Origin: Candidatus Zixiibacteriota bacterium | GTDB lineage: Bacteria > Zixibacteria > MSB-5A5 > UBA10806 > 4484-95 | Direction: 5' to 3' | DNA: 26,922 bases | Assembly (NCBI GenBank): GCA_029932605.1 | Contig: JAOZPT010000032.1 | Location: forward strand, 1-26,922 | In this document: positions 6,750 to 22,884 of the stretch, one piece after another | How the letters are laid out: each line of letters starts with the position of its first letter | Position numbering within the stretch: the stretch's first letter is position 1 | Translations under genes and position numbers: made by a program | The notes under the pieces: generated by a model | Seen by the model: only the letters and a program-made list of their open reading frames with translations | The model's database searches: none | Told to the model about the DNA's origin: nothing

Positions 6750-7569
6750 CTAAAGAATACTTCCTGATATTGGCCGAACCTTTCAGTCGATTAATAAGCT
6801 CGTTGTAGCTTGCCTGCCATTTTTCGTTAGTAATCATTTCAATGATATCCTGTTTGACTTCCTCTTTGGAAGAAACTGTCCCGGGAGCTGTTCGACCCCT
6901 TAACAAAAATATATGATAAAATCCGCTTTTAGACCTTACCGGCGATGTGAACTGACCGACCTCGATTTTATCAATGGCTCTAATCATATCCTCCTCAATC
7001 GCCGAAACCGGTAGAAGACCTATGTCTCCACCATTTTCCCTTGTGGTTATGTCCTCGGAAAAATCAGCAGCCAAAACAGCGAAAGAATCACCACTCTTCA
7101 AACGTTTGTAAACAGCATTAGCCGCGCCCTCAGAGTTAAGAACAATATGGCTCAAGTTCAACATCTCCTCATCGCTTTTAAACATATCTTTACGACTATT
7201 ATAAAGAGAGTCAATCTCTCTCTGGTCAACCTCTATCTTACTATAAACAGCCAAATCAACATATCGGCCAGCGATAATCTCCTTTCGTTTCTGCTCCAGA
7301 ATATTTTTTACCATCTTTTCCTTGTCTATGTTATGTTTCAAAGCCTCCTTATATAACAGCTCGGTTTCAATCCAGGCATCAATGGCCTGTGACAATTGCT
7401 TTTTAGTAATCGAATCTTGAACCTTCTGTGGAAATTGATCCATAAGGAATTCGTAAGTGAGTTTTGTGCCATCAACCTCGGCAATAACCCTACCTTCTTG
7501 CTGGGCGTTGGAACATCCTGCCAAAAAAAGCAAGATAATTACAAATGTCACGGAAAATCTATAACTCAT
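6739..7569 (-). CDS. Parvulin (PpiC-type) peptidyl-prolyl isomerase lipoprotein
   Basis: Lipobox LAGC; SHIVL...SFAVLAADFSED...GGDIG...GFYHI parvulin domain. Confidence 0.88.
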   Translation of the reverse strand: MSYRFSVTFVIILLFLAGCSNAQQEGRVIAEVDGTKLTYEFLMDQFPQKVQDSITKKQLSQAIDAWIETELLYKEALKHNIDKEKMVKNILEQKRKEIIAGRYVDLAVYSKIEVDQREIDSLYNSRKDMFKSDEEMLNLSHIVLNSEGAANAVYKRLKSGDSFAVLAADFSEDITTRENGGDIGLLPVSAIEEDMIRAIDKIEVGQFTSPVRSKSGFYHIFLLRGRTAPGTVSSKEEVKQDIIEMITNEKWQASYNELINRLKGSANIRKYSLDEY

Positions 7570-9247
7570 CTTTAAGCTTTCCTGTTTTGAGGGTTGCCTT
7601 TACCAAATCCAAATCTATAAAATGGTCAACCTTCTTTTTACGTTCATCTAACCACCTTCTCATGTTATCCAACTTCTTTTTTCCCATAAGATTTACCCTG
7701 ACCCGGTTCTCGACCTCGGAAAGCTTTTTTTGCTGCTTCGGTTTTTTACCGGTTACCTTGAACACGGCATACTCCGAGCCAATCCTCACCGGCCCACCGA
7801 TCTCTCCAATCTTCATTTTTATAGCCTGATTGTAAATTATCGAGTTGTCACGTGGCCCAATAAAGCCGAGGTCACCCCCTTTTTCAGCATAACCCGGCCG
7901 GATTGTTTTTCTAGCCAGCTTGGAAAAAGATACACCGTCATGAAGCTGGCCAAGTATCTGCTTGGCTTCATCTTCAGTCTTTACAAGAACTTCCGAAACC
8001 CTGACCTTTGCCGGTTCCACAAACATATCTTTTCTTTTATCGTAAAATTCTCTTACCTCCTCATCGCTAATGGTCACACCAGCCTGTATGTATTGGCTCT
8101 CCATCATCCGATAAATAAAACCATTACGCGCATCCTCATACTTGCGTAAATACTCAGGACTCTTTTCGAGACCTATTTGCTTCGCATATATATACATCAT
8201 CCTTGGCATAAACACATTGTCAATTATGTTATCAATAAATACCCTGTTCATTAAATCATAACCCGGGGAAGAGGACTTGTCCTTTATTGATTTTACAAAT
8301 TCTTCTACCGTTAAGGTTAACCCGTCTGCCCTTACCAGTGGCTTCTGAGCCTCGTCTGGAGTGAAATCCTCAATTGATATATACTTGCCCGAGGGTTGTT
8401 CACTGTTTTTAAGAACCTCCCTCAAGTGGGCGGCTTTTTCCCGAAGCATCTCAAGTGTTTCATCGATCATTTTATAATGTAGTTTCTTTTTTACCTTTTC
8501 TTTAAGTTCATCAGATAACTTCTGCCTTTGAAACCAGGTGGAAAATCTCCTGTATATTTTTTTATTCTGTTCGAAATCCATTGAGTCGTGTTTTATCCGT
8601 TCGCTAACTTTGATTATATGCCAGCCGTAAAGTGTTTCCACCGGTCTGGATATCTCGCCGGGTTTTAAATTAAAAGCAACCTCATCAAACTCTTTAACCA
8701 TATTACCAATTCGAATATAACCAAGTTCACCGCCTTTATCTCGGGTTACCGAATCTTCAGAACATTGTTTCGCAAGTTCAGAGAAGGAATCAGGGGCCTT
8801 CATAATAACCTGATAGAGGCTGTCAGCTAATTTTTTCCTCTTAACCAGAATATGCGAGGCTTTAATTTCACCTCCATACTGTTCCCAGAATTTATGTACC
8901 CGGTCTTCAGAATAATCCAATTGGTCGGTAATATTTTTCTTGTATAAAATTTCCAGCAATATCCGCATCTGTTGAGCCGAATCAACCTCAACAGAATCGG
9001 CCAACCCTATCTCTAAACCGGCATCGGCGATTAACATTTTATCAAGCTGTTGCTCCAAAAATTTTTCCTTCCTGTCAAACTCGTCTTGTGGTCCCTTGAA
9101 ATTCGCCTTAGAAAAAACTGATTCAAGGTCGCTTACTGTAAGAGAAAGCTTACCGGCTTTAAGAACAATCCGGTCATCAACCTTTGGTTTGGATGAACAG
9201 CCAAACAAAAAAGACGCCAATACTAACACCAATGCTATTTTTTTCAT
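7559..9247 (-). CDS. Two-domain parvulin PPIase lipoprotein
   Basis: AAGGAG RBS; lipobox LFGC; ASHILV...GGELG...YGWHII and a second, more degenerate domain VSEVLV...GGDLGFI. Confidence 0.88.
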   Translation of the reverse strand: MKKIALVLVLASFLFGCSSKPKVDDRIVLKAGKLSLTVSDLESVFSKANFKGPQDEFDRKEKFLEQQLDKMLIADAGLEIGLADSVEVDSAQQMRILLEILYKKNITDQLDYSEDRVHKFWEQYGGEIKASHILVKRKKLADSLYQVIMKAPDSFSELAKQCSEDSVTRDKGGELGYIRIGNMVKEFDEVAFNLKPGEISRPVETLYGWHIIKVSERIKHDSMDFEQNKKIYRRFSTWFQRQKLSDELKEKVKKKLHYKMIDETLEMLREKAAHLREVLKNSEQPSGKYISIEDFTPDEAQKPLVRADGLTLTVEEFVKSIKDKSSSPGYDLMNRVFIDNIIDNVFMPRMMYIYAKQIGLEKSPEYLRKYEDARNGFIYRMMESQYIQAGVTISDEEVREFYDKRKDMFVEPAKVRVSEVLVKTEDEAKQILGQLHDGVSFSKLARKTIRPGYAEKGGDLGFIGPRDNSIIYNQAIKMKIGEIGGPVRIGSEYAVFKVTGKKPKQQKKLSEVENRVRVNLMGKKKLDNMRRWLDERKKKVDHFIDLDLVKATLKTGKLKDEL

Positions 9248-9302: not shown

Positions 9303-12300
9303 TCAGTCAACCATCTTACGCAATATATTTTTAACCTGTCTTGCCCTGTCATTACCATCTTTTATTTTTATTGTGATCTGAAGATTAAAGTTTCGACCAG
9401 TTTTAAAATCCAGTCTTTCAGGAACATTTGAAACCCAGCGTTCTATCGTCTTTCTATTTATACTCTTGTTACTGGAAAATTCAAGTGTAAGTTTATCTTT
9501 TTTAAGCTGTAAAGCAGATAAACCTATTTTTTTCCCCAGAAGCCTTATCATTGCTATTTGAGCCAAATTATCGACAGACTCCGGGGGTAAGCCAAAACGG
9601 TCAACAAGCTCCTCCACAAGCTCATTAACGGCTTTTTGACTTTCCGCTCCAGCAAAACGACGGTATATATCCACACGCTGGCTGTTGTCGGGTATGTAAT
9701 TTTCTGGCAGAAACAGATCAAGGTCGGTTGTTATATCAACATCAGCTTTAAGGTATTCCGATGGTGTGCCTTTGAATTGTGCTACAGCCTCCTCCAGGAG
9801 TTTGACATAAAGATCGAATCCCACTTCCTCGATGAATCCGTGTTGTTGAGGCCCCAGAAGGTTGCCGGCACCCCTTATTTCAAGGTCTCTTAAAGCCAAA
9901 TGAAAACCCGACCCGAGTTCTGTGAACTCTTCAATGGCCTTAAGCCTTTTCCTCGCCTGACGGGTGAGAAGCTTCAACGGAGGTATCAGAAGGTAAGCAT
10001 AAGCCCTGTAATGTGACCGTCCAACACGTCCTCTCAACTGGTAAAGCTGAGCCAGACCAAGTTTATCGGCACGAACGATGATAATAGTGTTAACCGATGG
10101 TATGTCCAGACCAGACTCAATGATAGTGGTGGATAACAGCACCATATATTTACGATTGAGAAAATCATTCATAACACTTTCCAGCTCCCTCTCCGGCATT
10201 TGGCCATGAGCCACTCCAATCTTTACCAGCGGCATTAGTTCTTTGAGATATCTATAGAATGCCCAGATCGATTGTACCCTGTTATGGACTATAAAAACCT
10301 GACCACCACGATCAAGTTCGCGTTCTACTGCCTCGACTATAATCTGGTCGGAAAAATTTGCCACCCGGGTGGTGATAGGAAGTCTATCCTTGGGCGGAGT
10401 ATTGATAACAGACATATCCCTTACATCTATTAAGGACATTTGTAGGGTTCTTGGAATAGGAGTGGCCGTAAGGGTTAAAACATCAACCTGGGTTTTAAGC
10501 TTTTTTATTTTTTCTTTATGCCCAACACCAAATCGATGTTCCTCATCAATTATCAATAGCCCTAGTTCCTTGAAACAGACACTTTTCTGCAGAAGCTTAT
10601 GGGTTCCGATAACGATATCGGTCGAACCGTCGGCCAGCCCTTTCCTTATTCGTTTTGACTGTCCGGGAGTGCAAAAACGAGAATACATCTCAATTTTTAC
10701 CGGAAACTGAGAAAGTCTTTCCTTAAAAGTTAACAGATGTTGAGCAGCAAGGATGGTTGTCGGGACCAAAACTGCTACTTGCTTATACGATTCGACCGCC
10801 TTAAGAGCCGCCCTGATAGCCAGCTCGGTTTTACCATAACCGACATCACCACAAATAAGCCTTTCCATTGGTATCGATTTTTCCATATCGGCCTTTATCT
10901 CATCCATTGCTTTCAGCTGGCCAGGGGTTTCCTGGAACTCAAAAGAAGCTTCAAGTTGATGGATCCAATCTGTATCAGGTTTGAACGCAAAACCTGGATA
11001 AGCCTGACGTTTGGCATACAGCTCAACCAGTTCTCCTGCCATGGCCATTAGGGCCTTTTTTGTCCGGGCTTTAACTCTCTCCCAGGTTCCCGTACCAAGT
11101 TTCGAAAGACGCGGATCGCCATCCTTGCCGGCAAATTTCTGAACCCGGTTGAACTGTTCAATCGGGACATAAAGTTTGTCATTACCAAGATACAGCAGGG
11201 CCAGGCAATCACGTTTGCGCCCATCGACAACCAGAGTCTCCAACCCCAGGAATTTACCAATCCCGTAATCGATATGAACAACAAAATCGCCCGGATTGAG
11301 ACTGGTATATGAGGATAATGCTACCCCCTCGCGGAAGCGTTTGATATAGTGCCTTTTTCTAAAGCGAGTGAACATCTGATTGCCAACCAAAAACCATTGT
11401 TTTAATTCAGTGATGGCAAAACCTGATGATAATCGTGCAACATGTAAACCGATTGGAAAATGCAAATCATCGATCAATTCACCGATTCGCTCTTTCTGGG
11501 ATGGTCCCTCGCATAAAATGTTCAATTTATAACCCTGTTGATACAACTCCGCTAAGCGGCCTTTTACAAAAGACATGTTAGAGCTGAAATACTCCTGCGC
11601 CCGCGTATGAAAAACAACGTCGGACCGCTCATCATCATAAGAAACCGTGAGGTTGACAACCCTAAATCTCTCCAGCTCGAGATCGAACATATGTCTATCC
11701 AGATATATCCTCTCAGGTTTTGCAAACAAACGATACGATTCATCGGATTTTTCGTAAAGGGATTTATACCTTTTCTGTGCCGTTTCGAACACACTCTCAG
11801 CCTGCCCATCACATAAACCCGGTTCATCTACAAAAACCAATGTTTGCTGAGATAGATGTTCAAATAGGTTAGCCATATTTACGCCCATGTTGGGCCAGAT
11901 AAATTCAAGGCCATCATAATCGCCATTGTCACCCAGAGTGATATAAAGCGCCTGTGCCTGTGCTTCGTCAAGAGTGTGCGCATACCTTTCGATAATGTCA
12001 TCATTAAAGATTATCTCTCTCCGAGGTAGTATAACCGTAGATTCTACCTGTGAGGTTGACCGCTGGGTAAGCACAGAGAAATGTCTTATCGACTCTATAA
12101 CATCACCAAAAAACTCAATCCGAACCGGATCCTCATCTTTGGGGGCAAAAAAGTCAATTATTCCACCCCTGACCGAGTATTCACCCAACATCTCTGTCAT
12201 CGGAGAACGTTGGTAATTAAGTCGTTCCAGCAAAGCTATCAATTTTTCACGATCAAGCTCTTTTCCTCTCTCGAGCCGAAGGCTGTATTCGCTCAGGTCT

Positions 12301-12710
12301 CGCTTGGGGATCGTTTTCTCAAGAATCGCCTCTACTGGTGCAATAATTACCATTGGCTGACCACAACTTAGGTTATAAAGAGCTAAAAGTCTTTGCCCTA
12401 CTATCTCCATATGGGGTGCTCTTATCTCATATGGTGAGATGCCTAAGGCAGGGAATAAATAAACCAAGCCATCACCTAGAAACGCCTTAAGGTCATCAGC
12501 CATCCTCTCCGCGGTTTCAGACTCTGTGGATATAACCAGCATCGGCCTTAACAACTTCCTGAAAACATGAGCCACAACCATAGCTTTAGATGAGGCTGAC
12601 AGGCCACCTATGTTCACCTGTTTTTTCCCATCAGAAAGGCAATTGTCAAGCTTTCCTACAGGATTGAGAGACTCGATTTCTTTTAAAAGTTTCTGTAAAA
12701 TCATAAACAC
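9303..12710 (-). CDS. mfd: Transcription-repair coupling factor
   Basis: UvrB-like N-region, CarD-like RID (GDFVVHIDYGIG), helicase motifs GDVGYGKT, DEEH, TATPIPRT, QLRGRVGR, TRG motif RDLEIRGAGNLLG, TRCF C-domain. Start is GTG 12710 or ATG 12704. Confidence 0.98.
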   Translation of the reverse strand: MFMILQKLLKEIESLNPVGKLDNCLSDGKKQVNIGGLSASSKAMVVAHVFRKLLRPMLVISTESETAERMADDLKAFLGDGLVYLFPALGISPYEIRAPHMEIVGQRLLALYNLSCGQPMVIIAPVEAILEKTIPKRDLSEYSLRLERGKELDREKLIALLERLNYQRSPMTEMLGEYSVRGGIIDFFAPKDEDPVRIEFFGDVIESIRHFSVLTQRSTSQVESTVILPRREIIFNDDIIERYAHTLDEAQAQALYITLGDNGDYDGLEFIWPNMGVNMANLFEHLSQQTLVFVDEPGLCDGQAESVFETAQKRYKSLYEKSDESYRLFAKPERIYLDRHMFDLELERFRVVNLTVSYDDERSDVVFHTRAQEYFSSNMSFVKGRLAELYQQGYKLNILCEGPSQKERIGELIDDLHFPIGLHVARLSSGFAITELKQWFLVGNQMFTRFRKRHYIKRFREGVALSSYTSLNPGDFVVHIDYGIGKFLGLETLVVDGRKRDCLALLYLGNDKLYVPIEQFNRVQKFAGKDGDPRLSKLGTGTWERVKARTKKALMAMAGELVELYAKRQAYPGFAFKPDTDWIHQLEASFEFQETPGQLKAMDEIKADMEKSIPMERLICGDVGYGKTELAIRAALKAVESYKQVAVLVPTTILAAQHLLTFKERLSQFPVKIEMYSRFCTPGQSKRIRKGLADGSTDIVIGTHKLLQKSVCFKELGLLIIDEEHRFGVGHKEKIKKLKTQVDVLTLTATPIPRTLQMSLIDVRDMSVINTPPKDRLPITTRVANFSDQIIVEAVERELDRGGQVFIVHNRVQSIWAFYRYLKELMPLVKIGVAHGQMPERELESVMNDFLNRKYMVLLSTTIIESGLDIPSVNTIIIVRADKLGLAQLYQLRGRVGRSHYRAYAYLLIPPLKLLTRQARKRLKAIEEFTELGSGFHLALRDLEIRGAGNLLGPQQHGFIEEVGFDLYVKLLEEAVAQFKGTPSEYLKADVDITTDLDLFLPENYIPDNSQRVDIYRRFAGAESQKAVNELVEELVDRFGLPPESVDNLAQIAMIRLLGKKIGLSALQLKKDKLTLEFSSNKSINRKTIERWVSNVPERLDFKTGRNFNLQITIKIKDGNDRARQVKNILRKMVD

Positions 12711-12740
12711 AAAAACCCCGCTCCCTTTTGTGGGGCGGGT
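12711..12740 (-). terminator. Rho-independent terminator closing the polyamine/methyltransferase operon
   Basis: Minus strand ACCCGCCCC-ACAAAA-GGGAGCGGGG-TTTTTGTGTTT: GC-rich stem with one bulge plus a U tract, 20 nt after the stop at 12761. Confidence 0.7.
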
Positions 12741-12760: not shown

Positions 12761-13498
12761 TCAGTCTTTTTTCCTCGCTACAAGTATCATTCTTGGTGAA
12801 TTGGCCAGATATAAAGAGCCATCAAAATCACCATAAACATCGGTCAGAACCAAACCAACCTTATCGAACATATCAAGCATTTCAGTCAACGTATAAAGCC
12901 TGAAAGAAGACTCAAGCCGCCGCTTCTTACCGCCATCGACTATCAGTTGATGATCTATCTCCAGCCGCGATTTGAAAAAGTCAAAAAACCTTTCCTCGAG
13001 AATAACAGTGCCGTTTTCTATACTCCATCTTTTTGGCTGAAGAGAATGGATAATATTATCCCGGTTAATCGTGTCGATTAAAAATTGCCCGTCCGGTTTT
13101 AATGATTCAACCACTCCTTGTAACACCTTAATATCCTCAGATTCAGAATCAAAAAGGCCAAAGGCAGTAAATAGGTTTATTACGGCATCAAACTCGTTAA
13201 AGTGCTGAATATCTCTCATATCCCGTTGTTCAAGCTTGAGATTCACTTTCAATGAAACGGCTTTCTCATGGGCTTTTCTTAAAAACTTTTCAGATAAGTC
13301 CAGGCCGGTGACATCATAACCCTTTTTCGCTAACACCACCGAATGCCGGCCAAAACCACAACATAAATCGAGGATTTTAGCCGGTGGCTCAATCTGGAGC
13401 ATTCGTAGGATACCATCAACCTCCAAGGGAGCAGACTTCTCGGTATGCCAATATAGCTTCAGGTAGTCATCGTTAAAATATTTATCCCACCACGGCAC
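12761..13498 (-). CDS. Class I SAM-dependent methyltransferase (MT3)
   Basis: Motif I ILDLCCGFGRH, GLDLS, DMRD, FDAVINLFTAFG, LKPDGQFLID; GTG start after AGGAG. Confidence 0.9.
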   Translation of the reverse strand: MPWWDKYFNDDYLKLYWHTEKSAPLEVDGILRMLQIEPPAKILDLCCGFGRHSVVLAKKGYDVTGLDLSEKFLRKAHEKAVSLKVNLKLEQRDMRDIQHFNEFDAVINLFTAFGLFDSESEDIKVLQGVVESLKPDGQFLIDTINRDNIIHSLQPKRWSIENGTVILEERFFDFFKSRLEIDHQLIVDGGKKRRLESSFRLYTLTEMLDMFDKVGLVLTDVYGDFDGSLYLANSPRMILVARKKD

Positions 13499-13500
13499 TT

Positions 13501-14367
13501 TTATTCTCCTAAGAATCCTTTGGCAATTATTTTATAAGCCAGCTTGGCAGCAGTAAAATCAGCATATGTCAAACCGATTCGTGGTGATAGTTCAACTATA
13601 TCGCCGCCGACAATTCTTTTCTTTAAAGCGGTTGCATTAATAATCGACATCATCTCCTCCCAGTTTAATCCCCCCGGCTCGGGAGTACCCACAGCCGGCA
13701 TTACCGAGGGGTCGAAGCTATCAAGGTCAACTGTGATATAAACATTTTCGGATAAATTTGCTATGATTTTTTCAAAAATATCAGGGTTTTTTCTATATTC
13801 CGATATCTTAATTATCCTGTCTGAATATTTTCTTTCATTGTCATCATTGCTGAAACTTCTTACCCCCACTGTTATAAACGGCGCCATTTCAGCCACCCTG
13901 GCCATGACGCAAGCATGGGAAAACCTGCTACCCTGATACGAATCCCGAAGATCCGTATGGGCATCGATATGCAATACGGACAAATTATTGTACTTTTCTT
14001 TATGCCCCTTTACCAGAGCAATTGTTATGGAATGTTCGCCCCCTAAAGATAAAAGAAATTTGCCATCATCAAGAATTTTCATGCTTTTTTTATAAATAAT
14101 ATCCTGCATCTCTTTCGGGCTTGAGACAACCTGTTCGATCTCAGGAAGAGTGGCGATGCCGACTGATGAGGGGTCAAGTTCGAGAGTTTCATCATAAGTC
14201 TCAAGATGACGGGAGGCTGAGATAATAGCCTGCGGGCCGTTACGGGCACCCGGCTCATAAGTGAGGGTTAGCTCATAAGGTATCGGCAGGATAGCCACCC
14301 CGGCTTTGTGATAATCAGCCAGCTCATTAGACAAACCAAGGAAATTAAAAGAAACTGAATCGTACAT
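13501..14367 (-). CDS. speB: Agmatinase (ureohydrolase)
   Basis: GGEHS, HIDAHTD, SHA, DLDSFDPS, GTPEPGG and DIVE metal-binding/ureohydrolase motifs; in an operon with arginine decarboxylase. Confidence 0.93.
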   Translation of the reverse strand: MYDSVSFNFLGLSNELADYHKAGVAILPIPYELTLTYEPGARNGPQAIISASRHLETYDETLELDPSSVGIATLPEIEQVVSSPKEMQDIIYKKSMKILDDGKFLLSLGGEHSITIALVKGHKEKYNNLSVLHIDAHTDLRDSYQGSRFSHACVMARVAEMAPFITVGVRSFSNDDNERKYSDRIIKISEYRKNPDIFEKIIANLSENVYITVDLDSFDPSVMPAVGTPEPGGLNWEEMMSIINATALKKRIVGGDIVELSPRIGLTYADFTAAKLAYKIIAKGFLGE

Positions 14368-14368
14368 A

Positions 14369-15112
14369 TCAACTTACCACAAAAAACCACCGAGAAGCAT
14401 TCTCTATTGGTTCATCAGGGTCAAACGATGAAACCGAGATATTCCCAAACCCCGCTTTAGTTAAAGATTCGGCAACTTTATCCAAAGGGTAAGAGCGTTC
14501 ATAAATTTTTTGCAGAAAATGTTTATAGGTCGTTTTCCCCGATGAATCTCCGCTACTTACATTAACGAAACCCTCGATTGTAATTTCGGCTAAGGTTCTT
14601 TCAGGAAAATAAAAACCGTTTATTATCAAAGTATAGCCGGGTTTTCTTCTTATCTCAACCAATTCCCAGCCTGCCAATCCCTCCGGACTCAACATATCAA
14701 AAATAAAGAATCCTCTCTCCCTAAGGTGAATCCTGGCGGTTTTAAACATTTTGCATAGAGCGGCAATACTACCGAGGTGATTAACACTGTCGAAAAAACT
14801 GACCACTATATTGAAACGCCTTTTAAGCCTTACCGAAGTCATATCACCATGAATAAACTTAACGCCTTTGTTTTTTCCTCGAGCCTGCTTCAACATCCGC
14901 CGGGACATATCAACACCTACGAATCGAAGTTTTGTCTTACGCAACCTGTATTCAAGCTCACCGGTGCCGCAGGCTAAATCAAGTATAGTTTCATCACCTT
15001 TACCACGAAAACGGACAAAATTTTTCAATCGCTGGGCGCAGATTTTGGAAAACCGGCTCCAGCCCAATAAATCATAATAACAAGCGAAATCGCCATAAAC
15101 ATTGGTTTTCAT
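14369..15112 (-). CDS. Class I SAM-dependent methyltransferase (MT2)
   Basis: YGDFACYYD, ILDLACGTGEL, GVDMSRRML, GDM, FDSVNH, GFFIFD; ATGA overlap with the upstream gene. Confidence 0.9.
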   Translation of the reverse strand: MKTNVYGDFACYYDLLGWSRFSKICAQRLKNFVRFRGKGDETILDLACGTGELEYRLRKTKLRFVGVDMSRRMLKQARGKNKGVKFIHGDMTSVRLKRRFNIVVSFFDSVNHLGSIAALCKMFKTARIHLRERGFFIFDMLSPEGLAGWELVEIRRKPGYTLIINGFYFPERTLAEITIEGFVNVSSGDSSGKTTYKHFLQKIYERSYPLDKVAESLTKAGFGNISVSSFDPDEPIENASRWFFVVS

Positions 15113-15846
15113 TTATGTGCCACTACGAAAATCCGACCACACTGCGCCACAGGTTTTTCCTGGTGAAAGCTGGACATGGTTATTTTTAAAAAGCCGGCCT
15201 TTTTTAATAAACGGCGGACAGTGGAATTCGGATAACCCTTCTGATAGAAAACATCATAGAGACGGTTGTAGCATTTTCCTTTTGATTTCACAAAAGCCTC
15301 GATAAACATATAAGCTTTGTGATTTCCATCATCATATCCCCCATTTCGGATTATAAGATAATCCTTGCGTGAATTAACAAACTGGATAGACCAGTTTCTT
15401 AGGCCTGTTATCGTGTTCATATCGAATACGAATAAACCATTTTTATAAAGACAACGATAAACGTTTTTAAATGTTGCCAGTAACTCATCTCCCTTCATAA
15501 TATGATTTAAGGAATCGAAACTGCAAGTCGCAATATGAAATTTAGGTTTTAACGAAAATGTTCTTAAATCTTTGTTATAGAATTTTAACTTCGGATTTTT
15601 TTGACGTGCGATAATCAACATATCTCTACTAATGTCCAGGCCACAGGATTTGAATCCGTTTTTATTCAGAAGCCTGCAAAGCTCACCAGTGCCACAGGCT
15701 AAATCTATAATTTTTAAATAAGGTTTTGGGACACGATGGCTCTGCATATATTTTTTGAAAAAAGGTAAGGCTTTCAACAGGAAAGCTTTGGCAAACTCAT
15801 TGAAGCCAAGTTTGTCGTAATACTTAGCTAAACTTGAATACATCAT
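15109..15846 (-). CDS. Class I SAM-dependent methyltransferase (MT1), paralog of MT2
   Basis: YSSLAKYYD, IIDLACGTGEL, GLDISRDML, FDSLNH, GLFVFDMNT; ATGA overlap with the DHS-like gene. Confidence 0.9.
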   Translation of the reverse strand: MMYSSLAKYYDKLGFNEFAKAFLLKALPFFKKYMQSHRVPKPYLKIIDLACGTGELCRLLNKNGFKSCGLDISRDMLIIARQKNPKLKFYNKDLRTFSLKPKFHIATCSFDSLNHIMKGDELLATFKNVYRCLYKNGLFVFDMNTITGLRNWSIQFVNSRKDYLIIRNGGYDDGNHKAYMFIEAFVKSKGKCYNRLYDVFYQKGYPNSTVRRLLKKAGFLKITMSSFHQEKPVAQCGRIFVVAHK

Positions 15847-16871
15847 TTTGCTAATTTTATACGAGGTCCCATCTCAAATTCCGGAATATACTTACGTTTT
15901 TTATTTTTCCGCTTTGTGGCTAAGGCGCTGACGAGGATGGGTAGAGATATGGTGGAATCTGAAAAAACCGTCACCGTAGTGGACTCTTTAGCTATTTTGC
16001 CCCAGGACTTCGCCTCTGAGAATGTACAACCCGAAAGCCCGCCCCAGTGGGGTGCATCGGTGGTAATCTGAATAGCATAGTAATGCCCCTGATTTTCAGA
16101 TTCGGGACTCTTGGTATAGACCACCTCAGATTGCTGGATGAAATTTTTAGGTGAGCCGCCACCTATATATATTACACCTGACCTAGGAGAGTTTTCGGTT
16201 ATATAAGATGATTCATAAACATCCCCTATGACATCAAACTTGAAATAGTTATCCGGTTCATATTTTTTATTTGCCAGAGAGATCCCTATGGATGAATCTG
16301 CGATAGCAGGTATGTAGATCGGTATATTTTGTCGATAGGCGGCTGACACAATACAATCGGTTATCCCCTCCGAGTTCATTTTATCACCAAGTATGTTCAG
16401 GTATTCGCGGGTTGTAATGGAACGACCGGGATTGAAACCATAAGACAGCTTATCCAACCAGTCATCAGTGTTACGAAACTCATCCTCTGAAAGAAGGGTA
16501 TCGTAAACTCTATCGAGGTTATTTTTTTTAAGTTGCGAGTCATCGGTTTCTGGATACCACTTCCAATGATGGAATCCCCGGGCCTCGTGTATGTCATGGA
16601 ATATATTGGCTCCGGTGGAGACAAGGCAATCGATATAGCGGTTTTCAATAAGGTATATCACTATAAGCCTCATGCCAGCGGCCGACATCGCACCCGCAAA
16701 CCCAAAAAATATAAGACATCTATCATCTAACATTTTATCCCAGATATCTAAAGCAATAGATAGGTTTCTACCCTGGAAAGAACAATTCCCCATCTTCTCA
16801 AGAACATCTAAAACCGAGCTATCAGGGTTTATTTTAAACGGTATAACGGGATGTTTCCTGAACTCATCCAT
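15843..16871 (-). CDS. Deoxyhypusine synthase-like protein (probable homospermidine / aminobutylagmatine synthase, SpeY-like)
   Basis: FQGRNL, GAMSAAG, VSTGAN, RVYD, PAIADSSIG, GGGSPKNF, and GGLSGCTFSEAKSWGK with the catalytic Lys. Confidence 0.92.
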   Translation of the reverse strand: MDEFRKHPVIPFKINPDSSVLDVLEKMGNCSFQGRNLSIALDIWDKMLDDRCLIFFGFAGAMSAAGMRLIVIYLIENRYIDCLVSTGANIFHDIHEARGFHHWKWYPETDDSQLKKNNLDRVYDTLLSEDEFRNTDDWLDKLSYGFNPGRSITTREYLNILGDKMNSEGITDCIVSAAYRQNIPIYIPAIADSSIGISLANKKYEPDNYFKFDVIGDVYESSYITENSPRSGVIYIGGGSPKNFIQQSEVVYTKSPESENQGHYYAIQITTDAPHWGGLSGCTFSEAKSWGKIAKESTTVTVFSDSTISLPILVSALATKRKNKKRKYIPEFEMGPRIKLAK

Positions 16872-16872
16872 A

Positions 16873-17424
16873 TCAATTACAAAGGAAAATAGCTGCTGCT
16901 ACAACCGTAGTCCACAAACCTTTCTTATTTCCCCGGGATGATTGGGTAATATTGGTTGTGCGTACTATCTTACCAGAAATCTTATATATTTCTTTTTTCT
17001 CATCATACGATTTATCAACATCAAACTCTATCCCAAGCGTAGAAGCTAACATGCCTGCCGCTAAATCCTCGGCATAGTCACCTGATATGCGCTCTGTCTG
17101 GCCGAAAGCAGAATGTTCGGAAAGATAACCATACTGGGAACGGTCATTGGGAATTGCCAGGCCCACCGAGGCCGATATCAAGCGGTTGGGCTCGTTAGTC
17201 TCATTGCGTTTCATCACGCAATAGACGATTTGGCCTGGCTGTAGTTGTTTTAACCCCTGCTTTTTGGAAATCAACCTGCAGTTGGGGGGAAAAATCGAAG
17301 AGACATGGACCAAATTAACACCAGCGATACCTGCCGAGCGAAGAGCCAGCTCATACGAAGAAAGTTTCTCCTTATCCACGCCAACCCCTTTTGTAAGGAA
17401 AAGTTTATTGGGTATTATCAACAT
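16873..17424 (-). CDS. pdaD: Pyruvoyl-dependent arginine decarboxylase
   Basis: FLTKGVG, SSYELALRSAGI, NLVHVSSIFPP (Ser-Ser autocleavage site), GYLSEH, WTTVVAAA; RBS GAGGTGG. Confidence 0.93.
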   Translation of the reverse strand: MLIIPNKLFLTKGVGVDKEKLSSYELALRSAGIAGVNLVHVSSIFPPNCRLISKKQGLKQLQPGQIVYCVMKRNETNEPNRLISASVGLAIPNDRSQYGYLSEHSAFGQTERISGDYAEDLAAGMLASTLGIEFDVDKSYDEKKEIYKISGKIVRTTNITQSSRGNKKGLWTTVVAAAIFLCN

Positions 17425-17461: not shown

Positions 17462-17490
17462 ATAATAAAAAAAAACAGGTTTTTATGCAA
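17462..17490 (-). promoter_or_regulatory. Putative sigma70 promoter of the polyamine/methyltransferase operon
   Basis: Minus strand TTGCAT (17490-17485), 17 nt spacer, TATTAT (17467-17462), ending 37 nt upstream of the pdaD ATG. Confidence 0.55.
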
Positions 17491-17545: not shown

Positions 17546-19687
17546 TTACTCATAAAGAATGATATCCTCGCTGGCGCTAGCAGTCTCATTCGAAACCAGG
17601 TCCAATATATCAATTGTTATCCTGTATCTACCTCTTTTAAGGCTGGATAGGTCGAGAGTTAGAAGTCTGTTTTCATAAGTCAACACACCACTTCCATCAT
17701 AAACGGTCATAACCTCTTCAACCGTCTTATAGCCTCCAATAAGCCTACCGATAAGTTTCGGCTTTTCAAGGCGAGATATAATCTGTTTGATCCGATAATG
17801 AGTCCTGTTATCATTATCTTTTTTTAAATTATAAAATTCAAAATACACAACCACCGGTTCGGCTACGAAATAGCGATTGTCAAGGTTTGTGAAAAACTGA
17901 ATACTTTTCCGGCTAATGCGCATCCCATCTACTGGTAATCTTGCCATGCGACCAAGAACCAGCTCTGATATAGCCACTTTATCAACGTAGAAATTGCGCA
18001 AGCCTACTATCGTTTTTGATCTGCCGATATGACCATTATGCGGATTAGCAACGGCCATGGACAAGTATACTGAATCAGGATAGGCTTCAAGCGTAAAGTT
18101 ATGGCTTACAGCCAGCTTCATGTTGTCGACCTGACTGGAGGATATTTTCACAACCCGGGAGAACGATACTGAATCGAGAAGCGACCAATTACCATCGTGA
18201 ACAACTGCCCTTATATCGAAATCACCTATAGCAATATCGCCATCTTTTCTGAATGTTATCTCGCTATAAGGAACATTATAAAAAATCTCCATATCGGTTT
18301 TACCATGGTTGCCCTTAAACTGCTTGACCATATAAGCAAAATTCAATTCGGGTATGTCGCTCTTAAAATCGTATTTCTGAGCAACAGCCCTAACAAGCCG
18401 ATCAGCTACCAATGACATATCAACAAGTGTATCGCCCTTCTCAACCACAGTAGCTGTATAAGGAAAATCAAAATTGCCGTTATGGAAAGTGTCCTCGAAT
18501 TGCAGGGTGAAAGTTTTCCCATGTATCACATAATCCCATTCCCAAGTCAATACCAAGTTATCATTGATGAAGTATCTTTTCTCGTCGGGTATTCCGTAAC
18601 GTATTAGCATCTCGCCACGTTTAGTATTTTTACCCCTTACTTGTTTTTCCGGGATGGAGAATGTTAAGTCTGCATAAACCTGTCTTGCGTAATGCTCAAG
18701 TTTTCTTTCATTCTCGGAAGTGGTCGGGTCAGGGTCCAGCTCACCCCAGAGCCTGGCAACCTTTAATCTGCGTTGATAACTACTCAAAGACCTCAGATCG
18801 TTGTATTCGGTGGGTGAAACAATGAACTGAATATCGTTGAAATCGGCCAGGGCATTCCGGTTCATAAGAGCCATTGCCGAATCGAAATCTGCCGAGGCAT
18901 CACGAAACGCCTTAAGTCGTACATTGCAAAGACCGCGAATAAGGTAAATCTGGCGGGCAAGTTTATCCGGTGGCCCGAGCATCAAAGCGGTATCAGCTTT
19001 GGTAAGAGCCCGGTTAAATAGATTAAGTTGAATTAAAATCTTTGCCTGGTCGTAGTAGTCCTGAGAGTTATTCCTGACGGAAGCCGCCATTGCGGCATGT
19101 TCTAACGAACGATTAAAATAACCCCTGTCATCATACCTCAAACCCATCTCCTCGTATATCCCTGCAATATGCCGATGAGCCTGCACATATTGTGGATCAA
19201 GCTCGACAACTTTTTTAAACTGTCTTAACGCATTACCGGAAAAACCCTGTTTCTTATAAGTCAAACCAAGCGAATAATGATATTCGGGATTATCAGGATT
19301 TTCCTTGATCGCCTGTTTCAAGCTTACTACTGAAAGGCGACGGGAGATAATAGTACCTTTCTTGCGATAAATCTCGCCCAGTAAAAAGTGCGACTTTGAA
19401 TGGTGGCGATTGGCAGAAAGATTTATTTTTAATAACTTTTCAGCCTCCCGGTAATCACCCTCTACAAAAAGCGACTCGGCAAGTTCAAAATTTCTTTCTA
19501 AAAAATCCGATCTGGTACCAGACTCAGGTTTTAAGCTACAACCTGAAATCACAAAACCAACTATAAAGGACACAATAAGCGAAAAGACAGGTAAATATTT
19601 CCGTTTTACACTGCAATGACAGCTCGTAAAGAAATATGATAACAACTTCCCATGCAAAATATGGATTTCCCCATCTTTACAAACCAA
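17546..19687 (-). CDS. TPR + GWxTD domain lipoprotein (start codon uncertain)
   Basis: Lipobox-like ISGC; several TPRs; LWGELDPDPTTSENERKLEHYARQVYAD...GKNTKRGEMLIRYGIPD matches the GWxTD block in degenerate form; C-terminal Ig-like domain. Confidence 0.8.
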   Translation of the reverse strand: MVCKDGEIHILHGKLLSYFFTSCHCSVKRKYLPVFSLIVSFIVGFVISGCSLKPESGTRSDFLERNFELAESLFVEGDYREAEKLLKINLSANRHHSKSHFLLGEIYRKKGTIISRRLSVVSLKQAIKENPDNPEYHYSLGLTYKKQGFSGNALRQFKKVVELDPQYVQAHRHIAGIYEEMGLRYDDRGYFNRSLEHAAMAASVRNNSQDYYDQAKILIQLNLFNRALTKADTALMLGPPDKLARQIYLIRGLCNVRLKAFRDASADFDSAMALMNRNALADFNDIQFIVSPTEYNDLRSLSSYQRRLKVARLWGELDPDPTTSENERKLEHYARQVYADLTFSIPEKQVRGKNTKRGEMLIRYGIPDEKRYFINDNLVLTWEWDYVIHGKTFTLQFEDTFHNGNFDFPYTATVVEKGDTLVDMSLVADRLVRAVAQKYDFKSDIPELNFAYMVKQFKGNHGKTDMEIFYNVPYSEITFRKDGDIAIGDFDIRAVVHDGNWSLLDSVSFSRVVKISSSQVDNMKLAVSHNFTLEAYPDSVYLSMAVANPHNGHIGRSKTIVGLRNFYVDKVAISELVLGRMARLPVDGMRISRKSIQFFTNLDNRYFVAEPVVVYFEFYNLKKDNDNRTHYRIKQIISRLEKPKLIGRLIGGYKTVEEVMTVYDGSGVLTYENRLLTLDLSSLKRGRYRITIDILDLVSNETASASEDIILYE

Positions 19688-19759
19688 GCTTGATATCGAG
19701 GACCTGACCGCTAAGGACTAACTCCTATCGAAGTTATTGTTGATAACATCATTAAGGTT

Positions 19760-20107
19760 TTATCTCTTTTTTAAGTCAATACCATAGTTAGCCGCCTGGC
19801 GGTTTACAATTTCTAACTTATCCATACCGATTTTAATAAGAGATAGCAAAATCGACTTTATCTTCTCCTTTATCTGCTCTCTTTCATTTATAACGCGCAC
19901 CGAAAGTAAATTATCGAATTCGGGATCATCCATCAGACTTCTCACCTCTTCCCGTTCTCTCCCAATGCCAACTTTCTCAGCCTGCCGTCGCGTATCCTCT
20001 ATTTTCTCGGTCAATTCCGCTTCCTTTTTCGCCAAATCACCCAGCTCGTTTAAAAGCTCCAGCTGTTCCTTTGACAGGTTCTTTATCGTTTCCGGTGTAA
20101 GTTTCAT
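19760..20107 (-). CDS. Hypothetical small coiled-coil protein
   Basis: GGGAG RBS before the ATG at 20107; helical, E/K/R-rich sequence; co-oriented with neighbours. Confidence 0.7.
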   Translation of the reverse strand: MKLTPETIKNLSKEQLELLNELGDLAKKEAELTEKIEDTRRQAEKVGIGREREEVRSLMDDPEFDNLLSVRVINEREQIKEKIKSILLSLIKIGMDKLEIVNRQAANYGIDLKKR

Positions 20108-20223
20108 ATTCACTCCCGTAGAAATTTATTTGCGAATATTAACGTGACCATCACCAATAATAACTCGGGCATATTCATATTATTTATTATATAAAATCAT
20201 TGATATTATGTTTTCAATTCTTT

Positions 20224-22431
20224 TCATCTTCCTTTAACCACCACCAAGGTCATATCATCCATTTCCGCTGATTTTGAGGCGAATTGGCGAACATTCTTAA
20301 TGAGGTGACCACATATAAATTGAGCGGACCTGGACCGCACCTCTCTGGCGGTCTCTATAAGCCTTTGCTCACCGTATTCCTCCTCATGCTCGTTCATAGC
20401 CTCTGAGAGACCATCGGTATATATAATTAGAATATCATTTTTACGCAATCTAAGTTTAGATGTTTTATATTTAACCCCCTTAAATGCTCCAAGTATAAGA
20501 CCACCCTCCTTAAGGTATTCAACATCGTCATTTTCCCTTATTACAAACGGGATATTATGACCGGCATTACAGAAACAAAGAGAACCCGTATGGCAATTAA
20601 GTTCACCGTAAAACATGGTCACGAATTTATCAGGCGAGGTCGAGTTCACGAGAAGCTCGTTTATCCATGAAAACATAGCTTCAATAGGAGGGCATTTTTG
20701 TCCCTCGCTCTGAAGAACCGCCTGAAGGCGTGCCATAAGCAGAGCCGCTGGCACCCCCTTGCCCGAAACATCAGCCACCACGATACCCGTAGATTTATCA
20801 GATACATTTATAAAATCATAATAATCTCCTCCTACCTGGTGTGAGGGATAATTGAAGGCTGCGAACTCATAGTTCTCATAAACCGGCAAAGCTTGTGGTA
20901 AAAGATTTTGTTGAATTTGCCTGGCAACTGCCAGCTCTTCCTCAAGGCGCTGTTTAGCTAATGACTCGAGATAAAGTTGAATATTATTAAGGGATACTAC
21001 AACCTGGTTAGCCACCACAGATAACAGCGTTAGATCCTCATAAGTGTACCTGAAACCAGCTATTTTCTGCGATAAAAAGAATGCTCCAACCAATTCCCCC
21101 TTGTCGACAAGCGGGACAACAAGGTAGCCTCCAAGCTCAACGAGCCGTCCTCCAAGGTAACCCTCTCGGGTAAGACCTCTAAAACTATCCAAAAATACAG
21201 GTTTCTGCTTATCGACAAGCTGGTCGTGAATCTCTTTTTCAATTTTATATTCACGCAAATCACCACTAAACCTATAAAAGTCACTCCCCTCCTGCCGTAA
21301 AGCAAAATGAGTTCTCTCTATAAACATCTCCCGGCTTAGAGTATCCCCAACGATAGTGGTCAGGCGATTAATATCGAAAACGGTTATCAACTGTTTTGAA
21401 AATTCCTCCATTAGATGGCGATAATCACTTCGACTTCTTATGAAAATCCTTCGCACGAAATCATCAACCTGATTGTAAATTGGTTGAAAAAACAAAAGCA
21501 GTATTATAACAACAAGAACATCCAGTATCCGCGCCCCATATCCAAAAGTCGATGTGAAAAGCGACGAAAGCTGAGTTATAACCAGTAAATAACCGCCAAC
21601 TACTATGGCTGTGGTTACGGTATAAACAAGCCCCTGGCGTGCAATCAGCCCAATATCCAAAAACCTGAACTTTATTATTGCCCAGGCTATCGACCCCGGT
21701 CCAACAACAAGAGCGGTTAATATCATAACCTCTCTCAAACCATAGGAAAGCCTTATCGATAAAATAGTAGGAATTATAAAAGCCACCACATACAAACCAA
21801 CCGCTACCACGACACCAGCAATCACCACCTTAACCTGGGTTTTAAGCGCTGGATTGACAACACTCGAAAATCCCAAAGCTAAAAAATAGACAGATAACAA
21901 AACATAAGCGAAATTGATAAGCGAAAAAAACTTTGTATGAAATGTAAGTAAATATCCCAAAAAGGAGGTAAATAATTTTAAAAGTGCTTCGATATAAGCT
22001 AAGATCCAACCTATAACCGGCAAAGAAGTGTCAAAACTTAAAATGCCCATAATCGTATCCGGGTCATTTAAAGCAACGACCAGAACGATGTGAAATAAAT
22101 GGGGGATGAAAGCAACCTGGAGTAACCTTTTGTGCCTTTTGTAAAATGGCAACATCTCCGGGAATACTGTTGAAAACAAAAGCAGGGATGGGAAAAATAG
22201 CTCCCAGACATAAAAAATGTTTCGCACCGATTCCGATAAGGCGGAAGAATCTAATATAACCGATTTGTTTATAGCGACAATGAAAGGGGCAAGGCCAGCA
22301 AAAAAAAGCATGGCCGCAACCACCTTGTTTTGAACAGACTTCACATTTTCCCGAAGGATAATACCGGCGATAAGAAATAAAACTAAGGCGGAAACAAAGT
22401 AAATAAGAGATATTAAGAAATCGAGACCCAT
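20224..22431 (-). CDS. Membrane-bound PP2C (SpoIIE/RsbU-type) phosphatase with a multi-TM sensor and a GAF domain
   Basis: About 9-10 hydrophobic helices in the first ~320 aa; GAF-like region (LVVPLVDKGELVG); LEEELAVARQIQQNLLP, VGGDYYD, ADVSGKG, NAGH, YTDG and DDMT PP2C motifs. Confidence 0.93.
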   Translation of the reverse strand: MGLDFLISLIYFVSALVLFLIAGIILRENVKSVQNKVVAAMLFFAGLAPFIVAINKSVILDSSALSESVRNIFYVWELFFPSLLLFSTVFPEMLPFYKRHKRLLQVAFIPHLFHIVLVVALNDPDTIMGILSFDTSLPVIGWILAYIEALLKLFTSFLGYLLTFHTKFFSLINFAYVLLSVYFLALGFSSVVNPALKTQVKVVIAGVVVAVGLYVVAFIIPTILSIRLSYGLREVMILTALVVGPGSIAWAIIKFRFLDIGLIARQGLVYTVTTAIVVGGYLLVITQLSSLFTSTFGYGARILDVLVVIILLLFFQPIYNQVDDFVRRIFIRSRSDYRHLMEEFSKQLITVFDINRLTTIVGDTLSREMFIERTHFALRQEGSDFYRFSGDLREYKIEKEIHDQLVDKQKPVFLDSFRGLTREGYLGGRLVELGGYLVVPLVDKGELVGAFFLSQKIAGFRYTYEDLTLLSVVANQVVVSLNNIQLYLESLAKQRLEEELAVARQIQQNLLPQALPVYENYEFAAFNYPSHQVGGDYYDFINVSDKSTGIVVADVSGKGVPAALLMARLQAVLQSEGQKCPPIEAMFSWINELLVNSTSPDKFVTMFYGELNCHTGSLCFCNAGHNIPFVIRENDDVEYLKEGGLILGAFKGVKYKTSKLRLRKNDILIIYTDGLSEAMNEHEEEYGEQRLIETAREVRSRSAQFICGHLIKNVRQFASKSAEMDDMTLVVVKGR

Positions 22432-22458
22432 CAGGTTCCCTACCGGTTTGCCTGGATG

Positions 22459-22884
22459 TTAACCTTTTATTCTCTTCTTTATTACAACCCTGGTGCCAGT
22501 ACTCGTGAAATTGAAATCAACAGAATCCATAAGCGAACGAACTATAAAAATCCCTCTGCCAACTCGTTTTAAAATATTCGATTTTTCTACGGGATTAGGG
22601 ATGGAATCGGAATCGAAACCTCTTCCTTGGTCCGTAATGACAACTTCAACTTCATCCTTACGAATATCGATTTTAACCGTAACTTTCTTGTTAACATCAC
22701 CACTGTTCCCATGAAAAATCGCATTGTCTACAATCTCAGAAACAGAAATCGCTACATCCGCCTTGACAGATTTTGACACTCCAGCCTTGTCTAACTTCTT
22801 CTCAACAAACTCATCAACCGTGGCAATATAAACGGCGTCAGAGGGGATTACTATAACATTTCCTGAAATCTCAGGTTTGTTCAT
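22459..22884 (-). CDS. Anti-sigma factor / serine kinase, RsbW family
   Basis: SEIVDNAIFHGN, ITDQGRGFD and GRGIFIVRSLMD GHKL motifs. Confidence 0.92.
   Translation of the reverse strand: MNKPEISGNVIVIPSDAVYIATVDEFVEKKLDKAGVSKSVKADVAISVSEIVDNAIFHGNSGDVNKKVTVKIDIRKDEVEVVITDQGRGFDSDSIPNPVEKSNILKRVGRGIFIVRSLMDSVDFNFTSTGTRVVIKKRIKG

Follow-up and report, generated by a model that had tools for sequence, protein, structure and literature searches.

The contig JAOZPT010000032.1 of a Candidatus Zixiibacteriota bacterium (assembly GCA_029932605.1; its full 26,922 nucleotides are called the window below) carries on the reverse strand a block of six closely spaced genes, in which a polyamine module consisting of pdaD, a deoxyhypusine synthase (DHS) homologue and speB is interleaved with three genes for class I S-adenosylmethionine (SAM) methyltransferases, MT1, MT2 and MT3 (Table 1). 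The original prediction was that the block is a self-contained operon for the synthesis of N-methylated homospermidine, putrescine or agmatine. The genome itself (G000) comprises 2.53 Mb and is 99.96% complete; comparisons were made with a 41-genome set of relatives, a 201-genome sample, and 36 distant pdaD loci.

The six genes and the polyamine core

The coordinates, strand and spacing of the six open reading frames (ORFs) were exactly as predicted, with junctions of 1, −4, −4, 1 and 2 bp, and the genes are presumably co-transcribed. Motif I reads DLACGTG, DLACGTG and DLCCGFG in MT1, MT2 and MT3, respectively, which agrees with the predicted DLxCGxG pattern; none of the three contains the GGxDG motif of spermidine synthases or matches PF01564. 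Among the closest pdaD records (82–89%, n = 8), four were from Zixibacteria, three from Ignavibacteria and one from a "bacterium", and the named MT2 and MT3 homologues among the best matches listed were all Zixibacteria.

Table 1 Features of the six-gene block and its borders
Feature	Position	Strand	Basis
pdaD, pyruvoyl-dependent arginine decarboxylase, 183 aa	16873..17424	-	PF01862 202 bits; TIGR00286 above cut-off; HVSS at residue 40
DHS homologue (342 aa), probably a diagmatine (G44G) synthase of the SpeY type	15843..16871	-	PF01916 304 bits; K292
MT1, class I SAM methyltransferase, rare MT2 paralogue, 245 aa	15109..15846	-	Methyltransf_25; 36% to MT2
MT2 (247 aa), class I SAM methyltransferase of an uncharacterised family, with D-S-x-N-H following strand 4	14369..15112	-	Methyltransf_25
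speB (288 aa), ureohydrolase of the agmatinase family, probably acting on diagmatine	13501..14367	-	PF00491; TIGR01230 244 bits, above cut-off
MT3, NmbA-related class I SAM methyltransferase, 245 aa	12761..13498	-	Methyltransf_25; best PDB match 9RI2 NmbA
possible sigma70-like promoter TTGCAT-N17-TATTAT, unproven	17462..17490	-	spotted by eye; 3/6 at −35
conserved GC hairpin + T5 touching the start of mfd; either an mfd leader element or a leaky terminator	12711..12740	-	
mfd, transcription-repair coupling factor (presumed), constant downstream neighbour	9303..12710	-	sequence and length

The active-site motifs of the polyamine enzymes are intact. PdaD retains HVSS, which we take to be its self-cleavage site, and SpeB retains the ureohydrolase motifs GGEH, DAHTD and DLDSFDP. 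The DHS homologue contains SWGK with K292, and the W-G-K lysine is invariant in all 10 aligned sequences; by analogy with human DHS, we assume that the lysine of S/TWGK is the active-site residue. In the 41-genome set, pdaD and speB occur together in the same 33 genomes, and a DHS homologue occurs in those 33 and in the 69%-complete G023.

PMC13625781 describes diverse bacterial DHS homologues, designated SpeY, that couple two agmatines to form diagmatine (G44G); it reports that all the bacterial DHS homologues assayed gave G44G, and that the two SpeY-associated SpeB enzymes assayed hydrolyzed G44G and were inactive on agmatine. SpeY-type clusters combine an arginine decarboxylase, a DHS homologue and a ureohydrolase, and all three lie in one cluster here. 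The clusters described include pylADC-speY-speB of Caldilinea aerophila, with a pyruvoyl arginine decarboxylase beside speY and speB, and the caldomycin route of Thermus thermophilus (PMC13625781). Like these, the present block has the three enzyme families together, with the DHS lysine and the ureohydrolase metal motifs intact and no spermidine synthase in the genome; unlike them, it has interleaved methyltransferases, leads into mfd, and contains a DHS homologue that scores below the SpeY cut-off. The best NCBIfam model for that protein is PRK00805 (381 bits, cut-off 434), and a DHS-pdaD-speB copy from Rickettsiales scored 581 bits on the SpeY model. The low score of the present protein lowers its membership in the model but probably not the likelihood of the same chemistry.

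The absence of a SAM decarboxylase, originally noted for the window, holds for the whole genome: neither speD (PF02675) nor speE (PF01564) has a match anywhere in it, and nspC and AAT-fold decarboxylases gave no match either. Because of these absences, and because the only full-length AR-fold match in the genome is LysA-like, agmatine is the likely substrate of the DHS homologue. PdaD would decarboxylate arginine to agmatine, the DHS homologue, using NAD+ and Lys292, would join two agmatines to give diagmatine, and SpeB would remove both guanidino groups to leave unmethylated homospermidine. We consider it very probable that pdaD, the DHS homologue and speB form a member of the known SpeY homospermidine clusters. 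Homospermidine was thus foreseen correctly as the likely product. Putrescine, which had been proposed as an intermediate, is not expected, since the SpeY route couples agmatines before hydrolysis and the SpeY-associated SpeB enzymes assayed are inactive on agmatine (PMC13625781).

Several other DHS genes were observed. A second, distant DHS-like gene (G000:C53:32110-33000; L045:8036-9010, plus strand) is 24–28% identical, matches PRK00770 best (112 bits), keeps the WGK lysine, and had no polyamine gene adjoining it; genes of this type are the sole DHS in most f1 relatives. At all five f2 loci fetched (L040–L044), a DHS homologue heads a run of glycosyltransferase genes and a flippase-like gene (resembling GlcNAc-phosphatidylglycerol synthase, below cut-off). 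The single-contig genome G110 has a DHS gene broken into two pieces (L234:5294-6340) between pdaD and an intact speB, and its MT3 is likewise whole; this may be either genuine decay or an assembly error.

Gene order in the phylum and methyltransferases apart from polyamine genes

The full six-gene layout was seen only in G000. The pdaD/speY/speB core of this layout is already published (PMC13625781). The order pdaD-MT2-speB-MT3-mfd occurs in 14 genomes of families f1 and f2 and in G034; in G016 it lies over two contigs. MT2 is missing from this order in G002 and G006. G004 has DHS, a C-terminal MT1 remnant of about 60 residues, MT2, speB and MT3; G029 has pdaD-DHS-speB-MT3-mfd; and G038 and, from coordinates, G036 have pdaD-DHS-speB-mfd with no methyltransferase. 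Where MT3 is absent, mfd lies directly behind speB. Twenty further loci of the MT3 family (the 18 best new matches in the 201-genome sample and two f10 matches, representing f8, f10, f12 and f18) contained pdaD in 18 cases, DHS in nine (once in two pieces), mfd downstream in 17, and MT2 in none; both f10 genes separate from the MT3 clade in the tree. With these, speB and MT3 adjoin each other in f1, f2, f4, f8, f12 and f18, and f10 has a related gene. In three genomes with split loci (G024, G033 and G025), MT3 remained with mfd. We conclude that pdaD-(speY)-(MT2)-speB-MT3-mfd is an old gene order in this phylum, and that the linkage of methyltransferase and polyamine genes is conserved within part of the phylum and is no stronger than the link to mfd. 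The expected co-localization was thus found for MT2 and MT3 with pdaD and speB in several families, but the layout with three methyltransferases was not found elsewhere, and the 36 distant pdaD loci, many of them on short contigs, contained no member of the MT2 or MT3 family; DHS or speB was present in 23 of the 36.

If the methyltransferases served the polyamine pathway, they should be lost or relaxed together with it, and in genus g7 (G011, G013, G017 and G021; 90–96% complete, two of them single-contig) this failed. None of the four genomes has a match to pdaD, speB or PF01916, nor to PF01276, and none has nspC or potA above cut-off (the best match being UgpC-like; APC-type importers were outside the search). 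The three g7 genomes examined for speD lacked it and had at most one weak PF01564 match, in a long ORF. Two saccharopine-dehydrogenase-like proteins of g7 match lysine-catabolic enzymes rather than HSS; a supply of polyamines through CASDH/HSS, nspC, AAT-fold decarboxylases or PotA was considered, and none was found. No convincing remnant of pdaD or speB was present at the g7 loci. Nevertheless, g7 keeps MT2-MT3-mfd in place (the G017 copy is cut by a contig end), an order that requires two separate deletions sparing MT2. Ratios of nonsynonymous to synonymous substitution rates (dN/dS) in g7 were 0.04–0.16 for MT2 (six pairs, three near saturation), 0.04–0.06 for MT3 (three pairs) and 0.08–0.12 for mfd, and those in genus g8, where the pathway is present, were 0.13–0.16 for MT2 and 0.05–0.07 for MT3. 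Purifying selection therefore still maintains MT2 and MT3 in g7, which lacks the polyamine pathway, at ratios like those in g8 and like that of mfd. MT2 without pdaD was also found in two g16 genomes (G028 and G155).

Orthologues were counted in the 201-genome sample at E ≤ 1e-50 for MT3 and E ≤ 1e-30 for MT2, and those of MT2 were present in 47 genomes. Of 23 new MT2 matches at the latter threshold, 20 were fetched as further loci. Eighteen had no polyamine gene, and 16 of these 18 lay beside ctpA, usually with cdd and deoC; MT2 orthologues occur in this non-polyamine operon in three families. In the FastTree phylogeny, the MT2 orthologues group together with support 0.99 and divide into a branch with polyamine context and a branch with ctpA/cdd/deoC context, to the second of which the 18 loci belong; both branches share Y6, Y13, D14, W18, D108, N111, H112, D139 and W149. 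Conversely, 19 of 20 further pdaD loci, picked from genomes for which no linked methyltransferase was known, contained no methyltransferase of these families, and 21 of the 88 pdaD-positive genomes have neither MT2 nor MT3.

At three Promethearchaeota loci (L157:3922-4869, L158:3910-4857 and L160:2213-3157), a divergent DHS/pdaD pair is adjoined, in two arrangements, by a gene for a UbiE-like methyltransferase of 315 aa that contains an insertion and is unrelated to MT1, MT2 and MT3. These Asgard loci possibly represent an independent link between methyltransferases and polyamines.

The methyltransferases and their possible acceptors

MT1 and MT2 are 36% identical. The MT1 family comprises seven proteins at E ≤ 1e-40, MT1 included, and in the tree MT1 is placed, with moderate support, next to those MT2 copies that are linked to polyamine genes. 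Its GC content is 0.36, compared with 0.41–0.44 in the neighbouring genes, and its net charge of +26 is in the top 2% of the 454 ORFs of 200–300 aa in the genome; that of MT2 is +14. RNA binding by the MT2 family, which these charges might suggest, was rejected, as the family median is only +4 (range −7 to +26). Structure models of methyltransferases of the block were confident (pLDDT 89 and 93). Foldseek searches placed MT1 and MT2 closest to the uncharacterised Bacillota structures 1Y8C and 3D2L, followed by PsmD-type C-methyltransferases and the TylM1/DesVI sugar N,N-dimethyltransferases (TM-score 0.79–0.86). The DSLN motif is common to MT1, MT2 and 3D2L. We assume that 1Y8C and 3D2L belong to the family called YqeM; a literature search with this name and methyltransferase returned nothing. 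Identity to all these proteins is only 18–25%, and since it does not exceed 25% with any characterised C- or N-methyltransferase, no substrate can be transferred to MT1 or MT2. MT1, MT2 and MT3 reached at best 59 of the 350 bits needed on the NCBIfam model for glycine/sarcosine N-methyltransferase and 70 of the 175 bits needed on that for daptide-type methyltransferases. A metagenome scan with MT2 gave only a weak match and a 100% identical copy, the latter on a contig of 1.9 kb, and the ESM Atlas gave generic class I methyltransferase clusters for both MT2 and MT3. The predicted fold, rich in N-methyltransferases, and the missing spermidine-synthase features are consistent with the prediction that the three proteins transfer methyl rather than aminopropyl groups.

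The best match of MT3 among Protein Data Bank (PDB) entries is 9RI2 (E 3.7e-33, residues 2–242 of 245), which leads the next entry by 118 to 68 bits in sequence searches and by 192 to 123 bits in profile searches. It is also the top Foldseek match, at 28% identity (about 33% by eye, with some 79 identities in 241 positions), and its TM-score of 0.70 is below the 0.81–0.83 obtained with 3D2L or 1WZN. The structure is that of NmbA, the bacillithiol N-methyltransferase CT1040, whose crystal cap differs from its own AlphaFold model (PMC12719100; NmbA is also treated in PMC6282198). MT3 resembles NmbA in superfamily, cap fold and the motifs GRH, F(T/S)xFG, RxY and SPRM, and its host has bshABC. It passes the orthologue filter given in PMC12719100 (E < 1e-20, coverage > 80%, identity > 25% to CT1040); however, this filter is loose, because the family has 4,649 clusters at E ≤ 1e-30, and it admits proteins without the basic residues of NmbA. 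MT3 lacks both YxHR[DN] and KKxI...ExV, signatures that we read off the 9RI2 alignment. Proteins with these signatures (e.g., P0377, 174 bits to 9RI2) form a clade of their own with support 1.0, and the 26-member MT3 clade (support 0.96) is far from it, at rank 138 of 201 by tree distance in a FastTree phylogeny in which P0377 stood proxy for CtNmbA. At two positions that are mostly K in NmbA-like proteins, MT3 has glutamate, namely E169 and E180, the latter specific to its clade, and its family is acidic (median net charge −5.5).

The bacillithiol genes bshC-bshA-bshB1 form one complete block in the genome (G000:C68:96786-100163), all above cut-off. bshC was found in 38 genomes of the 41-genome set, including all four g7 genomes, and bacillithiol is likely a common thiol of the phylum. 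G008 (97% complete, 240 contigs) has an intact MT3, yet no bshC match and no bshA above cut-off. Given the missing signatures, the separate clade, the K-to-E changes and the G008 case, MT3 is NmbA-related by sequence but is not assigned as NmbA. At the position before mfd in f10 there is a separately branching MT3-family gene (L094:7926-8711, L242:5199-5978 and L243:4846-5664); two of these three have an Arg-rich N-terminus nearer to that of NmbA, and the L094 protein scores 130 bits to 9RI2. In the relatives, 20 MT3-like paralogues were examined and not one adjoins a polyamine gene, and 16 longer MT3-family representatives had no Pfam partner domain at E ≤ 1e-10 and no fusion to speB, DHS or pdaD.

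We lean toward the explanation that a known SpeY-type homospermidine module carries the three methyltransferases as passengers of an inherited gene-order block, and that these act on small acceptors other than polyamines. MT3 would have entered between speB and mfd, and MT2 between pdaD/speY and speB; MT1 would be a rare extra copy of the MT2 family; and all three are predicted to be small-molecule N-methyltransferases with a four-strand cap. Because g7 keeps MT2 and MT3 intact without polyamine genes, both likely act on a non-polyamine substrate. The predicted dedicated pathway of three methylation steps is also unsupported, given that the three-methyltransferase layout was seen only in this genome, that MT2 also occurs in the ctpA operon, and that further pdaD loci mostly have no methyltransferase of these families. 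Several observations nevertheless weigh against the passenger explanation. The upstream gene is speB at 19 of the 20 further MT3-family loci, directly so at 17; in G024 and G033, pdaD, MT2 and speB have relocated together, separating from mfd; and G166 and G184 have DHS-pdaD-MT2-speB-MT3-mfd. pdaD is present in 45 of the 47 genomes with an MT3 orthologue and in 41 of the 47 with MT2, compared with 88 of 201 overall, although related genomes are not independent and the large families without pdaD, f9 (0/73) and f16 (0/21), may stand for a single event. Only g7 is a well-supported case of decoupling, joined by g16 for MT2 alone, and g7 could import polyamines by another transporter. The acidic changes in the MT3 sequence would possibly suit a cationic acceptor, polyamines included. 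For the module itself, the DHS homologue reaches only 250 bits on the SpeY model NF002699, for which the cut-off is 500. The alternative to which most of these points lead, that MT3, MT2 or both, with MT1 providing an extra step, N-methylate homospermidine, diagmatine or agmatine within a module running via diagmatine, is in our judgment unlikely. It would account for the tight, interleaved junctions, for the conserved speB-MT3 adjacency, for the joint movement of MT2 with pdaD-speB, and for the co-occurrence with pdaD; the closest characterised folds of the predicted models include the amine N-methyltransferases NmbA, CcbJ, CypM and TylM1, and E169 and E180 lie in cap strands and putatively face the pocket. 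It does not fit the purifying selection on both genes in g7, where no polyamine route turned up, the same core residues in MT2 orthologues of the ctpA/cdd/deoC context, the pdaD-positive genomes free of MT2 and MT3, the missing link in the 36 loci outside the phylum, or the basic charge of MT1 and MT2, though the low family median tempers this last point. We are similarly skeptical of its broadest form, in which N-methylated homospermidine or diagmatine would be made by much of the Zixibacteria, with MT3, as an NmbA relative in which basic bacillithiol-binding residues became acidic, capping the SpeY pathway and MT2 and MT1 adding methyl groups.

Within the passenger explanation, and for MT3 only, the protein might be a diverged NmbA that makes N-methyl-bacillithiol. 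The wide lead of 9RI2 in sequence searches, its first rank in Foldseek, passage through the published filter (PMC12719100), the complete bsh block and the finding that MT3 is the best match in the genome to three NmbA-signature proteins all speak for this, and bshC in all four g7 genomes would explain why MT3 was retained there. We find it quite doubtful all the same, in view of the absent signatures, the distant clade, the size of the family that passes the filter, the higher TM-scores to 3D2L and 1WZN, and the MT3 of G008; in addition, glutamate at 169 and 180 disfavours a dicarboxylate substrate. Because its pocket is presumably changed relative to NmbA, MT3 more likely accepts another small amine than bacillithiol. 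A further alternative concerns the core: the DHS homologue might not be a SpeY, in which case speB would be an ordinary agmatinase yielding putrescine, and the DHS homologue would use putrescine or modify a protein lysine. PRK00805 rather than the SpeY model is indeed its best match, the block of most f1 and f2 relatives contains pdaD-speB but not DHS, a distant version of which (24–33%) is their only one and lies elsewhere, and this genome has the second DHS-like gene. However, G44G was the product of every bacterial DHS homologue assayed (PMC13625781), the DHS homologue accompanies pdaD in 33 of 33 genomes of the 41-genome set and is missing from seven of the eight without pdaD, and no spermidine route was found in the genome; we therefore regard this alternative as very unlikely.

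If the passenger explanation is correct, the newly defined SpeY/diagmatine route reaches an uncultured phylum and a clade of DHS homologues that score under the curated model's cut-off, and two conserved and selected methyltransferase families, so far uncharacterised, are brought to attention. If instead the polyamines are methylated, these would be the first genes for a methylated bacterial triamine, and a bacterial polyamine N-methyltransferase would have evolved independently of the plant putrescine N-methyltransferase. The plant enzyme is derived from spermidine synthase; its reaction resembles the one originally proposed here, and MT1, MT2 and MT3 differ from it in having neither GGxDG nor PF01564. 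The literature searched, which covered few subscription journals, contained no bacterial polyamine N-methyltransferase and no pathway for methylated homospermidine or methylagmatine, and none of the best matches listed (20 of 1,904 for polyamines and 15 of 86 for bacillithiol) mentioned Zixibacteria. The word "methyl" does not occur in the main text of PMC13625781.

Borders and surroundings of the block

The putative promoter upstream of pdaD, originally described as sigma70-like, is visible by eye. It is unproven, because its −35 hexamer has only three of six consensus bases, it was not among the calls of the promoter scan, and such sites show no enrichment (23 found, 16.9 ± 4.1 expected).

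The proposed terminator is a real hairpin (12740–12711) followed by T5, and it is kept in all 10 valid aligned rows of f1 and f2. It is also present in G021, whose genome has no polyamine genes, and was not seen before mfd in G029. On its own the fold is weak (z −1.64; 13 of 200 shuffles fold equally well), and the terminator scan did not call it. The T-run ends directly at the GTG start of mfd (12710; an ATG lies 6 nt further), which leaves no space for a separate mfd promoter behind the hairpin. Because of this contact, we infer that the hairpin does not so much close a self-contained operon as serve as a leaky terminator or as a leader element of mfd. "Self-contained" is doubtful also because a long run of genes on the same strand begins with the block and continues through mfd. 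The hairpin contains the only purine-rich, Shine-Dalgarno-like stretch before mfd (rows L031, L069, L071, L072, L074, L076, L077, L079 and L084), and is possibly an attenuator or translation-control element for mfd.

Behind mfd on the same strand lie three tandem genes (5454–9247) for what we take to be SurA/PpiC-like foldases; they are conserved with mfd across the class. Upstream of the block, a second group of genes on the reverse strand (17546–22884) is conserved in f1 and f2. It presumably encodes a TPR/GWxTD-type protein, a PP2C-like phosphatase (membrane N-terminus) and a protein resembling anti-sigma factors, and it includes a 117-aa ORF that has no Pfam match.

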